A DNA stretch of 64,000 nt from a virus, in the IMG/VR virus record IMGVR_UViG_3300032304_001168. One strand, written 5' to 3'. Of this stretch, positions 287-50,682 are shown piece by piece (the stretch's first letter is position 1; every line of letters starts with the position of its first letter). The translations under genes were made by a program, and so were the position numbers. Below the pieces are notes generated by a model. The model worked only from the letters and a program-made list of their open reading frames with translations, did not search any database and was not told where the DNA came from.

Positions 287-1087
287 TTAAATAGGTAAAT
301 TTATTTTACTTAATAACTGATTTGAAACGTGTGTATAAATTTCAGTTGTTTTAACATTATTATGACCTGCAATCTTTTGAATTATTCTCAAATCCGTTCC
401 ATTTTCTAATAAATTGGTGAAACAAGAATGTCTGAGTTGATGAATATGATATTCTTTACCTAAGTATTGCTTTACAATTTTATTACAACTCCCAAAACTA
501 TATTTTAGATTATTTTGACCATTGAATAGATGGGTGATTGGTTTATATTCTTTATAATATTCTCTTAGAAGTTGTAGGATATTTTGTGATAGTGGAACAA
601 TCCTATCTTTTCTACCTTTGGCATTTTTGATATGGATAATCATTCTTTTGGAATCAATATCTTCAATTTTGAGATTGACTACTTCTGACACTCTTAGACC
701 TACTGAAAATGTTAGTGATAGTAGTGTCTTATGTTTTAGGTTTTTGATTTTGGAGAGTTGTTCTTTAATAAAATCACCATCAATAACTTTTGGAAGTTTC
801 TTTTCTGATTTAGGTCTTTTGAAACTTACTTTATCATATTTTTTATCCAATCCAAATTTATAGAGAAATCTGATTGCGTTAATGATTTGGTTTTGTTGAG
901 AAACTGAGGTGAAGTTATAGTTATCTAAATAAGATTGAAAATCTTGAGAGGTTAATCTAGTTGGTGATGTTTTATTATTTTCTAAAAACTGATTGATGTA
1001 AAAAAGATAGGACTTGATTGTCCTATCTGAGTAATTTAAGTATTTCAATTTTTGATTACAAATTTCGTAGTAATTTGTCTTTTTCAT
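287..1087 (-). CDS. tyrosine recombinase/integrase (integron-integrase-like N-terminal SAM domain, XerC/D-type catalytic domain)
   Basis: YSDRTIKSY N-terminal domain; GLRVSE, KGRKDR, HQLRH, AGHNNVKTTEIY catalytic motifs (R-K-H-R-H-Y). Confidence 0.93.
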   Translation of the reverse strand: MKKTNYYEICNQKLKYLNYSDRTIKSYLFYINQFLENNKTSPTRLTSQDFQSYLDNYNFTSVSQQNQIINAIRFLYKFGLDKKYDKVSFKRPKSEKKLPKVIDGDFIKEQLSKIKNLKHKTLLSLTFSVGLRVSEVVNLKIEDIDSKRMIIHIKNAKGRKDRIVPLSQNILQLLREYYKEYKPITHLFNGQNNLKYSFGSCNKIVKQYLGKEYHIHQLRHSCFTNLLENGTDLRIIQKIAGHNNVKTTEIYTHVSNQLLSKINLPI

Positions 1088-17288: not shown

Positions 17289-17320
17289 CAAAATTACGGA
17301 TTAGATTTCTAATTTCCAAA
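17289..17320 (-). promoter_or_regulatory. Bacteroidota sigma70-type promoter
   Basis: TTTG-N20-TAATTTTG on the minus strand. Confidence 0.75.
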
Positions 17321-17810: not shown

Positions 17811-17842
17811 CAAAATTACAAACTACTTTTCTAATTTCCAAA
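17811..17842 (-). promoter_or_regulatory. Bacteroidota sigma70-type promoter (duplicate of the 17289 module)
   Basis: TTTG-N20-TAATTTTG; shares its downstream leader with 17264-17297. Confidence 0.75.
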
Positions 17843-34527: not shown

Positions 34528-34566
34528 TGTGAATCTTTTAATTGATTTTGGGGGTGAGTTATATTG

Positions 34567-34591
34567 AGGTGTGTATATATTTTAGTTATGT
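34567..34591 (+). other. attI-like site 2 (no adjacent integrase)
   Basis: AGGTGTgtATATATTtTAGTTATGT, same spacing as 1121 and 47195. Confidence 0.6.
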
Positions 34592-34608
34592 GTAATAAAA
34601 AACTAAAA

Positions 34609-34830
34609 TTAAACTACCTCAACTTTATACAGTGTTCTATTACCTAAAATTTCTTTTGAAAAACTTTTAATCACATCATTATTTTTGTGTGAAATAGTTT
34701 CCACATCTGAATTATTCTTAAATTCTTCTAATGTTTTACTTAACCTGTTAAAGTAGATTTGTTCCCACAAAAATATACCAGTCCATTGTAAGTTTTTCAA
34801 AATAAAATCTGTTAATTTAGTTCTTTTCAT
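34609..34830 (-). CDS. cassette ORF, hypothetical
   Basis: 73 aa inside the cassette. Confidence 0.6.
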   Translation of the reverse strand: MKRTKLTDFILKNLQWTGIFLWEQIYFNRLSKTLEEFKNNSDVETISHKNNDVIKSFSKEILGNRTLYKVEVV

Positions 34831-34848
34831 ATTGTTTAATTTTTAAAA

Positions 34849-35064
34849 TTATTTACCATATCTACTATTAACAAAAACTCTATTAGCTCCCGTTGTAAGT
34901 GATAATTGATTTTGTTGCTTCATCAATAGTTCAAATTGATTTTCTATTCTTAACCTGTCTGAATTACTTTTTAACATATTAATCAATTTATCCAACTCCA
35001 TATCTCTTTTTGAAGTTAGAAAACCAATTTGTTCCTTGTAATGTAGTTCGAGTTTTTGTTCCAT
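34849..35064 (-). CDS. cassette ORF, hypothetical
   Basis: 71 aa inside the cassette. Confidence 0.6.
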   Translation of the reverse strand: MEQKLELHYKEQIGFLTSKRDMELDKLINMLKSNSDRLRIENQFELLMKQQNQLSLTTGANRVFVNSRYGK

Positions 35065-35093
35065 TTGTATAATTTTTTAGTTTTTTTACATAC

Positions 35094-35178
35094 ACATAAC
35101 AACAAATATAAGAAATAAATTTTGATTTATCTATTTTTTATAGGTAAAATTTACTTCTCATATTTGCAACCGTTAGCG
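35094..35178 (+). repeat. attC-like site (85 bp)
   Basis: ACATAAC-aa-CAAATATaAGAA...TTCTcATATTTG-caacc-GTTAGCG. Confidence 0.75.
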
Positions 35179-46253: not shown

Positions 46254-46898
46254 CTAAATCACAATTTCCCAACCTTTTTTCAAATAAAAATCTAAATCTT
46301 TTTCATCAATTTCTATTTCTCTTTCTAAATAAATTGTTTGTCTGCGATGTATATCCCCACATAGAACGATATCACATCCCTCAAATTTACTCACCTCATA
46401 TCCTGTTTCAAACTTATATCCAATGTCTGTATATAACCCTATAATAGGTCCGTGAAACAATCCAATTTTAAGGTTATTAGATTTCTCAATTGTTGGGGGA
46501 ATATTGTGTTCAAATAAAGAATATACAACCCAATCAATATTCTCATCAACATATACACCTCTATCTTTGTAATAGACAATGTTATCATTATTCATTGATT
46601 CAATGATGGGGGTTAATGTATCCAATCTTGATAAATTGTTCTCAAGCATATCATGATTTCCAACAATGATTATTGTTTTTGCAATCTTGGAACATTTATC
46701 TAATGTCCATCTAACCATTTCAATAAGTTCTGGGCTGACTTGGTTTTTACTATGGACTAGGTCGCCACTGAATACCAGTCTATCAGGTTTAATCTCTTTG
46801 AATTGATTAAACATATCAATCAATATTGATTTGTATAAATCGTGGTCTTTTATTAATCTCAAATGTAAATCAGAGAAGTGACAGATTGTTTTTATCAT
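46254..46898 (-). CDS. sbcD: SbcD/Mre11 (gp47-like) metallophosphoesterase N-terminal fragment
   Basis: SDLH, GDLVH, GNHD, FHG, GDIH. Confidence 0.9.
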   Translation of the reverse strand: MIKTICHFSDLHLRLIKDHDLYKSILIDMFNQFKEIKPDRLVFSGDLVHSKNQVSPELIEMVRWTLDKCSKIAKTIIIVGNHDMLENNLSRLDTLTPIIESMNNDNIVYYKDRGVYVDENIDWVVYSLFEHNIPPTIEKSNNLKIGLFHGPIIGLYTDIGYKFETGYEVSKFEGCDIVLCGDIHRRQTIYLEREIEIDEKDLDFYLKKGWEIVI

Positions 46899-47134
46899 TT
46901 CAGTTTTTGTTTTGATTTAATAATATTCACCAATTCTTCTTTTATTTCGTTTTGAATATCCTCATCAATATTTCCCCACCAACCATCAAAACCACCTCTA
47001 TCACATAGAGCATCAATAATTTCATTTACAATTTCTTTTTCCATTTTATTTATTTTTTTCTTCCATCAAATACAACAATCATACTAAATCAGAGAAGTGA
47101 CAGATTGTTTTTATCATTTCAGTTTTTGTTTTGA
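46866..47134 (+). repeat. 50-bp direct repeat (46866-46915 and 47085-47134) containing the sbcD start
   Basis: TAAATCAGAGAAGTGACAGATTGTTTTTATCATTTCAGTTTTTGTTTTGA present twice. Confidence 0.9.
46895..47044 (-). CDS. small hypothetical protein (49 aa, not in ORF track)
   Basis: MEKEIVNEIIDALCDRGGFDGWWGNIDEDIQNEIKEEL...; ATGA-coupled to sbcD. Confidence 0.6.
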   Translation of the reverse strand: MEKEIVNEIIDALCDRGGFDGWWGNIDEDIQNEIKEELVNIIKSKQKLK

Positions 47135-47154
47135 ATTTCGTAATAGTTTCCCAT
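47134..47154 (-). pseudogene. remnant of integrase 5' end
   Basis: MGNYYEI versus MKKTNYYEI of 287-1087, with homologous upstream DNA. Confidence 0.65.
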
Positions 47155-47194
47155 TTTTACCTCTTAAATCATTGATTATTTGAGGTTTTAAAAT

Positions 47195-47219
47195 AGGTGT
47201 TGATATATTATAGTTATAC
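47195..47219 (+). other. attI-like site 3
   Basis: AGGTGTTGATATATTATAGTTATAC, one mismatch to 1121-1145. Confidence 0.75.
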
Positions 47220-47231
47220 TCAATTAAAAAA

Positions 47232-47378
47232 TTATTTTGAGTTATATAATATATTCCATTCAGTATATGTATTTGATAATAATTCTTCTATTGTAATCCC
47301 AAATCTTATACAATCACCTAAACATATTTTGTAAAAATTCACACTTCTTTCGTTTATTATATATTCTGAAAATGTCAT
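47232..47378 (-). CDS. cassette ORF, hypothetical (48 aa, not in ORF track)
   Basis: MTFSEYIINERSVNFYKICLG...ILYNSK*. Confidence 0.6.
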   Translation of the reverse strand: MTFSEYIINERSVNFYKICLGDCIRFGITIEELLSNTYTEWNILYNSK

Positions 47379-47816: not shown

Positions 47817-47910
47817 ACATAACAAGGTGTATATGTAATTTTTTTACAAAGGTACGAATAAGTTTTGACATTTCCAAATAAAAAACTACATATACACCCA
47901 TACGTTATAA
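47817..47910 (+). repeat. attC-like site with internal promoter
   Basis: ACATAAC-aa-GGTGTATATGTA...TACATATACACC-catac-GTTATAA. Confidence 0.8.
47847..47878 (-). promoter_or_regulatory. Bacteroidota promoter inside attC loop
   Basis: TTTG-N20-TACCTTTG. Confidence 0.75.
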
Positions 47911-48517: not shown

Positions 48518-48610
48518 ACATAACAAGGTGTATATGTAATTTTTTACAAAAGTACGAATAAGTTTTGACATTTCCAAATAAAAAACTACATATACACCCA
48601 ACCGTTAGCA
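48518..48610 (+). repeat. attC-like site with internal promoter (near-identical to 47817-47910)
   Basis: same stem; loop contains minus-strand TTTG-N20-TACTTTTG at 48547-48578. Confidence 0.8.
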
Positions 48611-49313: not shown

Positions 49314-49407
49314 TGCTAACAAGGTGTATAAGAAAGTTTGCTATCAATATTTGTGGTAATTTGAGAGTTCATCTAAGCAAACCTTCTAATACACCCAACC
49401 GTTAGCA
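49314..49407 (+). repeat. attC-like site (94 bp type)
   Basis: TGCTAAC-aa-GGTGTAT...ATACACC-caacc-GTTAGCA. Confidence 0.8.
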
Positions 49408-49419
49408 GTAATATTGTGG

Positions 49420-49659
49420 CTACTTCCCAATTGGTCTATTACAAGTTGCACAGATATAACTACCATTCATTAAATAACATTGAGATTGCTGACAGCCACA
49501 ATACATACTGCTAACATCGGCTATACGCAAGTTTTTTGCTTCCGTTAGTCGGTTAATAACATTGTTTGCCTCTATCAACATTTCAATCAATTTGTCTTTT
49601 TCTATCATTTGATACATCTCTACTTTTTCAGAGTGTGTCATTTCAATTACTTGCATCAT
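49420..49659 (-). CDS. cassette ORF starting inside its attC loop; C-terminal Cys-rich zinc finger
   Basis: KNLRIADVSS encoded by the attC arm; CGC...CATC. Confidence 0.65.
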   Translation of the reverse strand: MMQVIEMTHSEKVEMYQMIEKDKLIEMLIEANNVINRLTEAKNLRIADVSSMYCGCQQSQCYLMNGSYICATCNRPIGK

Positions 49660-49722
49660 ATATTTTAATTTTAGTGTTTCAAATTCGCAAAAAACCTGAC
49701 GTATAGCCGAGAACCGTTATAG
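49509..49722 (+). repeat. attC-like site with long coding loop (214 bp)
   Basis: TGCTAAC-a-TCGGCTATACG-CAAGTTTTTTGC...GCAAAAAACCTG-a-CGTATAGCCGA-gaacc-GTTATAG. Confidence 0.75.
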
Positions 49723-49980
49723 ATAATAAGCATCCAACACACTTTCAATATAACCTATTGATATGTGTATTTTAACTAAATCATCATATGTTTTTATACG
49801 TTCAAAAAATTCCTCTTTATTCAACCACTCCACATAGAAACCACCTTCATGTAAATTCATACAATATCCATCATATTCCGTATAAAAACTATCTAACAGC
49901 TTACTATCTATAACATCAGATATATGTAATTTTTCATTACTCTTATCTAAGTTTTGTTCTAAATTTTTATCTTCTTTCAT
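49717..49980 (-). CDS. cassette ORF starting inside its attC loop
   Basis: KLHISDVIDS encoded by the attC arm; stop codon in the GTTA core. Confidence 0.65.
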   Translation of the reverse strand: MKEDKNLEQNLDKSNEKLHISDVIDSKLLDSFYTEYDGYCMNLHEGGFYVEWLNKEEFFERIKTYDDLVKIHISIGYIESVLDAYYL

Positions 49981-50027
49981 CTTATTAAATTTTGTGTTAA
50001 AACTACATATATCTGTAACCGTTATAA
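49908..50027 (+). repeat. attC-like site with coding loop (120 bp)
   Basis: CTATAAC-at-CAGATATATGTA...TACATATATCTG-taacc-GTTATAA. Confidence 0.8.
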
Positions 50028-50031
50028 AACA

Positions 50032-50682
50032 TTATAAACGACCACCCCACTCAAATCTAACATATTCAACTTTAAAATCAACATCGTAAATCTCTTTTAG
50101 TAAATTTACAGCATATTGTTCATAACTACAATTCTTATCATATTCTAAACGATGTTGATTATCGTTTACTTCCATTGTCATATGTTCACCTTCGAAACTA
50201 TGACTTTCAATAAATTTGATTTCCATATTTTTAATTTTTCTTCCATCAAATACAACAATCATACTATCTTTTGTACCACTTTGTACTTTACCCTTTGAAT
50301 TTACAGGATAATAAAAATTACCATCATTGTCAACTTTCCCAAATTTAATCCTCCCCCTTACAAATTCAATTTCAGTCGCATTTGGTTTAATATAATCGTG
50401 AAATAACTTTGTGGAGGTGGAAACTGGTATCAAAAATACACAAACTTTTCCCTTCTTCATCTCCTCAATCCCTTTCTTAATAAAGGCCTCCTTTAACTTC
50501 TGACTATATGGGGGATTTATGAAAGTTGACATCCCCCATTCAATATTTAAACCATCAATATCAACATCCTTTTCATTATATGGACAAGGGTCAAAATCAA
50601 ATTTAAACCTCTTATTTAACTCCTCATAAAATTCTGGGGGTGTTGCATAATTATCATCATTATTAATGTGAATCTTTTTCAT
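50032..50682 (-). CDS. phage DNA N6-adenine methyltransferase (Dam-like), apparently fused to a downstream small ORF
   Basis: YATP, FDFDPC, FINPPYS, LIPVST, RGRIKF; extra MEIKFIES... tail. Confidence 0.85.
   Translation of the reverse strand: MKKIHINNDDNYATPPEFYEELNKRFKFDFDPCPYNEKDVDIDGLNIEWGMSTFINPPYSQKLKEAFIKKGIEEMKKGKVCVFLIPVSTSTKLFHDYIKPNATEIEFVRGRIKFGKVDNDGNFYYPVNSKGKVQSGTKDSMIVVFDGRKIKNMEIKFIESHSFEGEHMTMEVNDNQHRLEYDKNCSYEQYAVNLLKEIYDVDFKVEYVRFEWGGRL

Follow-up and report, generated by a model that had tools for sequence, protein, structure and literature searches.

A 64,000-nucleotide stretch of viral DNA (analysed in full and hereafter called the window) is part of a large phage with an integron-like cassette system, in which, as we consider likely, each cassette is made of a hairpin and the gene body downstream of it, and genes start inside the hairpin loops. 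The window is AT-rich and phage-like (28.7% G+C), carries most of its genes on the minus strand and encodes Dam, a ParB-like nuclease, a primase, DnaJ and a C5 methylase. The host is probably of the Flavobacteriia type, and the closest integrases among isolated phages (37–40% identity) are those of Cellulophaga and Polaribacter phages. Jumbo phages of Flavobacteriia bearing DnaJ/DnaK were described in a 2025 paper, in which integrons and hairpins go unmentioned. The cassette region gave no match to isolated phages by megablast, the window gave none in an Rfam search, and a scan for sigma-70 promoters and terminators found no enrichment.

Following the minus strand from 50100 to 46800, nearly every small gene is succeeded by the same kind of site. 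On the coding strand, six nucleotides and TAAC come first, then a spacer of four nucleotides, usually GGTT; the 5′ and 3′ arms follow with the loop between them, and after one or two T the site closes with GTTA and six further nucleotides. The sequence TAACGGTT is found eight times in the window (1.3 expected), on the minus strand every time, and each copy opens a hairpin that closes in GTTA. A strand-neutral scan of the window recovered ten TAAC...GTTA hairpins of 48–208 nt, all in one orientation, and neither direct-repeat flanks nor target-site duplications were seen at the sites. The main features are the following.

50024-49911, 49719-49512, 49404-49317, 48607-48521, 48258-48211, 47907-47820, 47467-47420, 35175-35097, 2704-2617 and 1440-1393, minus strand: hairpin sites found by the scan
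49911..50024, minus strand: hairpin site 1 (attC-like), with TAAC 50024-50021, GGTT, 5′ arm ~50015-49999, loop, 3′ arm ~49933-49917 and GTTA 49914-49911
49717..49980, minus strand: ORF87, 87 aa, with N-part codons 1-23 (49980-49912), C-part 49911-49720 and stop TAA 49719-49717
49905..49914, minus strand: R' box of the ORF87 body (GTTA and 6 nt), complementary over 10 nt to the R'' box 49725-49716
49512..49719, minus strand: hairpin site 2 (attC-like, 208 nt), with TAAC 49719-49716, GGTT, 5′ arm ~49710-49687, 3′ arm ~49540-49518 and GTTA 49515-49512
49420..49659, minus strand: ORF79, 79 aa, with N-part codons 1-49, junction Val49 (GTT 49515-49513) and a C-part of 30 aa
49506..49515, minus strand: R' box of the ORF79 body (GTTA and 6 nt), complementary over 10 nt to the R'' box 49413-49404
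49317..49404, minus strand: hairpin site 3 (88 nt, without a loop ORF), which closes the ORF79 cassette; z -5.6 as a single-stranded DNA fold
48607-48521, 48258-48211, 47907-47820 and 47467-47420, minus strand: four further sites of the same array, between ORFs of 205, 67, 80, 116 and 48 aa

Folded as single-stranded DNA, site 1 forms a 17-bp inner and a 6-bp outer stem (MFE -10.7 kcal/mol, z -2.4) around a loop containing an A-rich leader and an ATG, while site 2 has ~23 paired bases with one bulged T in the 5′ arm (MFE -27.1, z -4.1) and a loop that holds the first ~40 codons of ORF79. At 7/7 successive sites of the array at 50–47 kb, what follows GTTA is the reverse complement of what precedes the next TAAC; every body therefore has complementary ends, which is the signature of an integron cassette. 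The layout of a cassette on the coding strand is C-GGTT, 5′ arm, loop, 3′ arm, GTTA and 6 nt, body, and 6 nt and TAA.

The original prediction held that two ORFs begin in hairpin loops and read on through the arm and core, giving the peptides KNLRIADVSS and EKLHISDVID, and both coordinates and peptides were confirmed on the minus strand. The ATG of ORF87 (49980) lies in the site 1 loop, 44 nt after the TAAC of that site, and the ATG of ORF79 (49659) in the site 2 loop, 60 nt after the corresponding TAAC. Both reading frames continue across the 3′ arm and the GTTA core, GTT being read as Val23 in ORF87 (...LHISDV|ID) and as Val49 in ORF79 (...LRIADV|SS). In ORF87, the loop, 3′ arm and GTT of site 1 code for the N-part and the cassette body for the C-part; in ORF79 the N-part comes from the site 2 loop and 3′ arm. 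ORF87 stops on the TAA of the site 2 TAAC. The 5′ end of the gene is therefore formed by the 3′ half of the recombination site. The claim that such a site is at once a structured, recombination-type site and coding sequence is borne out, and so is the claim that each protein is divided into a part encoded by loop and arm and a part encoded by the body.

The same arrangement was followed in a set of 201 distinct hairpins from the window and from loci fetched from relatives, in which the hairpin types of ORF87 and ORF79 are over-represented because the loci were fetched via these two ORFs. A loop ATG in the GTT phase is present in 89/201, and from it the frame stays open past the core for a median of 51 codons, against a median of 6 codons for the 103/201 without an in-frame loop ATG. 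Expressed differently, 89% of the GTT-phase loop-ATG hairpins are open for at least 25 codons past the core, versus 7–20% where there is no ATG or in the other phases. As in the cassettes of ORF87 and ORF79, the loop combines an A-rich leader, an ATG and the first codons in ~40% of the 201 hairpins, a share inflated by the fetching of loci. Among distinct bodies, 21/35 stop on the TAA of the next TAAC and 22/35 have ends complementary over exactly 10 nt; bodies behind loop starts have no start of their own or do not need one, and many contain no Met at all. This conservation of frame argues for translation from the loop ATGs. The proposal that an L-x-I-x-D-V motif would mark attC-derived proteins was right for one hairpin superfamily, in which it is the translation of the arm, but it is not general, as other families give other peptides, nearly all of them ending in V (GTT).

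The stems themselves appear to be conserved as structures. In the family of 48-nt hairpins (n=12, 11 distinct), TAAC, GTTA and an 11-nt loop are invariant while the stems differ, yet 98.9% of the cells are paired, and nine of the twelve inner pairs show changes on both sides. The covariation score is 0.63; shuffles give 0.16, with 0/500 reaching the observed value, and sliding the partners gives no more than 0.155. A G.T/U pair is conserved at the base of the stem. Across the set of 201 hairpins, the coding strand folds better in 190 (mean difference -5 kcal/mol, p 1e-31). Taken as sequence evidence, these figures argue for selection on the structure that the hairpin sites adopt on the coding strand. 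The recombinase gene described below has this better-folding strand as its sense strand; in integrons, the attC strand that is recombined (the bottom strand) is likewise the sense strand of the integrase gene.

Three further features concern the recombinase and the ends of the arrays.

287..1087, minus strand: XerA/IntI-clade tyrosine recombinase of 266 aa (Pfam Phage_integrase and SAM_4)
47191..47216, minus strand: attI-like end of the 50–47 kb array, with TAAC 47216-47213, the conserved motif and then a stub of the recombinase N-terminus
34565..35175, minus strand: third small array, with hairpin 35175-35097, two ORFs, and TAAC 34588-34585 with the attI-like motif

The attI-like motif, which follows a TAAC without a hairpin, is present in three copies (~1117-1142, 34565-34588 and 47191-47216). 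The first of them (TAAC ~1139) is beside the recombinase gene, just upstream of it, with the hairpins 1393-1440 and 2617-2704 nearby. In NCBIfam the recombinase scores highest with the archaeal-type XerA model (179 bits) and with that of integron integrases (TIGR02249, 154 bits), both below the cut-off, and the latter match (cut-off 265) is split over two stretches. Its nearest solved structures are XerA-like proteins and IntI4. Aligned with IntI4 (2a3v), residues 178-210 of the query lie opposite 181-261 of IntI, the ~48 missing residues being the IntI-specific insertion. Related recombinases (85% and 72% identical) were found in two of five large related viral contigs, all five incomplete. 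One of these contigs (L027) has the identical attI-like motif beside the 85% identical recombinase, and the gene of the adjoining cassette starts in a hairpin loop. The attI-like site at 47134-47216 is followed by a short ORF, MGNYYEIQNKN, resembling the N-terminus of the recombinase; this segment is a duplicated platform from which the recombinase gene has been deleted.

Some loops carry what look like expression signals instead of gene starts. In two near-identical 88-nt hairpins, the minus-strand loops at 47847-47878 and 48547-48578 match the Bacteroidota promoter consensus (TTTG, ~20 nt, TAnnTTTG), and similar matches lie between genes at 17289-17320 and 17811-17842. Over the window the motif is enriched, with 14 occurrences where 5.8 would be expected. 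Hairpin loops may thus carry promoters for the downstream cassette gene.

Signals of this kind fit the alternative that the hairpins act in RNA only, in the control of translation, processing or stability, and that modules are swapped by ordinary homologous recombination between conserved arms without any site-specific enzyme. The transcribed strand is the one that folds better in 190/201 hairpins, and this bias fits a role at the RNA level equally well; the G.U pair at the stem base is conserved, start codons as well as the promoter motif lie in loops, and chimeric hairpins suggest exchange inside hairpins. An RNA stem, however, leaves three observations unexplained: bodies whose ends are complementary over 10 nt, arrays that end at a conserved attI-like site beside a tyrosine recombinase, and one body found behind hairpins with unrelated arms at an identical GTTA joint. 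We regard an exclusively RNA-based function as unlikely, although an RNA role may well coexist with recombination. As to the chimeras, loci L012 and L037 contain hairpins with mismatched arms and L088 a loop swap, showing that other recombination routes act too.

In relatives, the two halves of these proteins are met in many combinations. In 13 IMG/VR loci the match to ORF87 is confined to residues 1-26, beyond which each locus runs in frame into a different sequence. A large protein collection yielded 106 proteins matching ORF87, of which ~80 share the N-part only (85–100% identity) and 11 are full-length homologues of the C-part with at least five different N-parts; a metagenome scan with the whole ORF87 as query added 54 loci. 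At the DNA level the 23-aa leader occurs 59 times in the fetched loci with 39 distinct continuations, and all of its junctions that are not cut by a contig end (55/55) are open for 29–64 codons. The N-part of ORF79 (49 aa) is joined to at least 15 different C-parts, while its C-part follows at least six unrelated N-parts, each time with the junction ...V|S; at the DNA level these N-parts lie in genuine hairpins that belong to different families, and in one further case the arms are the same but the loop ORF is another. The same N-part joined to different C-parts, proposed as a check of the original prediction, is therefore found for both genes, and so is the reverse. Individual proteins illustrate the incongruence, P0001 being 18% identical to the window in the loop-encoded part and 98% in the body, and P0008 100% in the N-part and 52% in the C-part. 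Overall, the identities of N-part and C-part to the window are not significantly correlated (Spearman 0.12).

Three loci deserve separate mention. At L022:4901-4986 a tRNA-Val(TAC) gene takes the place of the hairpin 5′ arm, directly upstream of an ORF87 homologue with a loop start. At L024:3433-3648 an ORF87 homologue in a phage contig without hairpins starts MNISDT..., a remnant of arm and core in which GTTA has become ACTA; either the cassette has decayed or this is the ancestral form. Lastly, the contig containing L037:1253-1452 (compared with window 50032-50223) is 97.5% identical to the window over 1.25 kb of the Dam region, but the last ~65 codons of Dam are unrelated, a different body follows hairpin 1, and the hairpin is chimeric, with the 5′ arm of another hairpin type.

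To delimit the mobile unit we used homology blocks (at least 93% identity, both ends internal) together with a symmetric linkage test. Blocks comprising the hairpin only are the most numerous (200), 45 extend from the TAAC edge of a hairpin into the downstream body, eight of them ending exactly at the next TAAC, 13 contain the body only, and none runs from GTTA to the GTTA of the next hairpin, i.e. body plus downstream hairpin. In the linkage test, in which just 18 pairs had a common upstream context, 41 pairs had hairpin and downstream body in common but differed in what lies upstream, and no pair showed the reverse. The geometry of the arrays is in line with this, the last body abutting the attI-like site and a complete hairpin standing at the far end. 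Linkage, blocks and geometry together suggest that the usual mobile unit is the hairpin with its downstream body, in which case a gene would normally travel whole, with its own site at the 5′ end and its ORF within one cassette. The opposite composition, a body with its downstream hairpin, was rejected on the linkage test and the block classes. An earlier linkage test based on hairpin-body-hairpin triples (12 vs 0) was discarded as biased by locus fetching.

Exchange at the inner core has nevertheless taken place. Between the window and locus L029 a 99.5% identical stretch reaches from the last 3′ arm bases before GTTA to just after the next TAAC, while the flanking hairpins differ or are unrelated; a body so nearly identical between unrelated hairpins means that inner-core exchange has happened, and recently. 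The suggestion that exchange at the core could make chimeric proteins therefore holds in part: the incongruent N- and C-part identities and this body speak for it, but the usual unit appears to be hairpin plus body, and exchange at the inner core to be the rarer event.

Could the G|TTA crossover inside the ORF be the main reaction instead, a cassette then being a C-part body followed by the next hairpin with the next N-part, so that each protein would come from two neighbouring cassettes? The many combinations of leader and body and the sharp break of homology at GTTA would both be expected. Nevertheless the scheme is improbable, given that blocks of the required kind number none against 45 of hairpin and downstream body, that no pair combines the same upstream body and hairpin with a different downstream body against 41 of the reverse, and that the last body of each array abuts attI without a hairpin of its own, attI offering nothing but TAA|C on the coding strand. 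We hold, then, that the main crossover probably falls at TAA|C on the coding strand, where the hairpin has its 5′ foot; exchange at GTTA looks like a second, rarer route, perhaps through recombination of the other strand.

The abundance of hairpin-only blocks could also recall selfish palindromic repeats (MITE-like or RPE-like) that are inserted by or into genes and translated by chance. Palindromic repeats translated in frame are known from Rickettsia, and the phage hairpins do belong to repeated, sharply bounded families. It is highly improbable that they are of this nature, since target-site duplications are absent, the inverted ends belong to the bodies and not to the hairpins, the stems covary while TAAC and GTTA stay fixed, and the hairpins form ordered one-strand arrays ending at attI-like sites with the recombinase adjoining.

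The two N-parts differ in character. The leader of ORF87 is modelled with pLDDT <60; from the junction onwards the model is a confident helical domain. Variants of the 23-aa leader amount to 16 synonymous and 62 non-synonymous counts, which suggests a weak constraint at the protein level, although codons 14-23, arm included, hardly vary; compensatory changes in the arm alter the peptide, as in LHISD to LRISN. Disordered in the model and weakly constrained, the leader looks like a dispensable start module, with a role like that of ORF-11 of attI1, fused rather than coupled. The N-part of ORF79, on the other hand, is predicted as a helical domain (pLDDT >90), with ten invariant columns in homologues down to 42% identity. 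Its C-part is a zinc-ribbon-like body; the junction falls in a low-confidence linker before a small beta-hairpin with CxxC, and the core here lies at a domain boundary. Searches of Pfam, PHROGs and Foldseek gave no match indicating a function for ORF87 or ORF79, and the ORF87 model compared with the PDB by Foldseek gave nothing at E <1. That the loop ORFs are untranslated, the true genes starting downstream or the small bodies being non-coding, is most improbable: the weak amino-acid constraint in the 23-aa leader and a Met just after the junction in the ORF79 body would agree with it, but the 55/55 junctions open in frame, the phase-specific effect, the many bodies without any Met, the conservation of the ORF79 N-domain in diverged homologues and the confident predicted folds for both ORFs all contradict it.

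The following mechanism would account for these observations. The folded coding strand would be the substrate of recombination, and the XerA-like tyrosine recombinase of the phage would cut TAA|C both at the hairpin's 5′ foot and in the attI-like sites, so that the unit that moves would be the hairpin with its downstream body. Compared with classical integrons the genes would be placed 'backwards', each with its own site at the 5′ end. Since all loop-start cassettes have a common GTT-A phase, any leader hairpin fits any body in frame; by comparison of the loci, bodies have moved repeatedly from one hairpin to another exactly at GTTA and TAAC, with chimeric small proteins as the result. More tentatively, it is possible that GTT|A is a second crossover used by the enzyme, via the other folded strand, and that the GTT-A/TAA-C phase is kept by selection; the phage would then own a device for in-frame 'exon shuffling' of small proteins at the DNA level.

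The resemblance to integrons, including the sedentary chromosomal integrons with homogeneous attC families, extends to a tyrosine recombinase beside an attI-type site and to single-gene units set between imperfect palindromes with ...AAC / GTT... cores, the two ends of each unit being complementary. In the sense of IntegronFinder, the phage has an attI-like site by the recombinase gene at the end of an array, attC-type imperfect inverted repeats with AAC/GTT cores, an internal bubble, loops that vary and a conservation of structure but not of sequence, and bodies whose 5′ end is complementary to their own R''; it lacks the extra domain of IntI near patch III and promoterless ORFs reading away from attI with an attC at the 3′ side. 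Actually, the phage ORFs read towards the attI-like site and the recombinase gene, and the linked site is 5′ of the ORF. Unlike integrons, moreover, the system is carried by a phage and has several arrays in one genome, the recombinase is without the IntI insertion and below the TIGR02249 cut-off, the R boxes measure 10 nt, and the loops carry start codons or promoter-like motifs. In integrons it is the IntI-specific insertion that recognises the folded attC, and its absence speaks against the proposed mechanism. A precedent for a Xer-family enzyme managing without it is CTX-phi, whose folded single-strand hairpin is integrated by XerCD, but that system consists of one attP hairpin and the host dif, with no arrays, cassettes or coding role. 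The Xer/dif systems with pdif modules differ as well, in that their double-stranded sites of 28 bp (two arms of 11 bp, a spacer of 6 bp) flank modules in alternating orientation, whereas the phage sites are hairpins of 48–208 nt in one orientation. In phage genomes, the T4-type promoter-early stem-loops (PeSL) are intergenic, carry expression signals and mark points of shuffling; neither they nor RPE have a recombinase with attI, TAAC/GTTA cores, complementary body ends or a fixed junction phase.

Clusters of attC sites (CALINs) and small cassettes have been described in virulent phages, a Polaribacter phage among them (Qi et al. 2023, PMC9892861); the standard attC model served to detect the sites and IntI1 to test them, and that paper reports neither a Xer-like recombinase of the phage's own with attI copies nor gene starts encoded in loops. 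In class 1 integrons, ORF-11 and ORF-18 of attI1 and short attC ORFs, with a start region of their own, span the crossover point and aid cassettes that lack a start region, and N-terminal fusions occur occasionally, e.g. aac(6')-Ib with the N-terminus of OXA-1 (PMC8876359). Translational coupling is how those site ORFs mostly work, and they usually end within the core, whereas in the phage in-frame fusion is the rule and involves dozens of bodies. Fused integron cassettes likewise give chimeric or co-translated products at cassette junctions (PMC4670013), but they arise by loss of attC, while the phage cassettes keep the hairpin intact and translate it. A full-text literature search found no description of cassette genes that, as a rule, take their start and N-terminus from a hairpin loop, of a common junction phase or a stop codon in the next core, or of a phage-own Xer-like recombinase with attI copies.

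If this reading is right, half of a structured recombination site can act as the 5′ end of a gene, with the pairing of the stem dictating amino acids, and one codon phase common to many cassettes makes pieces of proteins interchangeable. A recombinase without the IntI insertion beside attC-like hairpins would bear on the origin of integrons from Xer recombinases. The arrays point to a large pool of fast-recombining small phage proteins, many of them zinc ribbons, and provide a signature that can be searched for in viral metagenomes: a loop ATG, the arm, GAT-GTT-A and a body ending in TAA-C.

Some smaller features were noticed around the attI-like sites. Two different ORFs adjoining them (1158-1352 and 47232-47378; 64 and 48 aa) have identical 26-nt inverted ends, which encode a common C-terminal NSK and the stop. 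A 53-nt direct repeat (46866-46918 and 47085-47137, 98% identical) encloses a 219-nt segment with a 49-aa ORF (47044-46895); the repeat is the start of a metallophosphoesterase gene, and, situated beside the attI-like end of the array, the pair looks like the scar of an insertion or duplication. In L028 (reverse strand), just upstream of the recombinase gene, there is a 'cassette' reduced to complementary GTTA... and ...TAAC ends round an 11-nt loop, TCGTTTTAATG, the same invariant loop as in the 48-nt hairpins; this minimal form may be an empty unit or a protein-binding motif.
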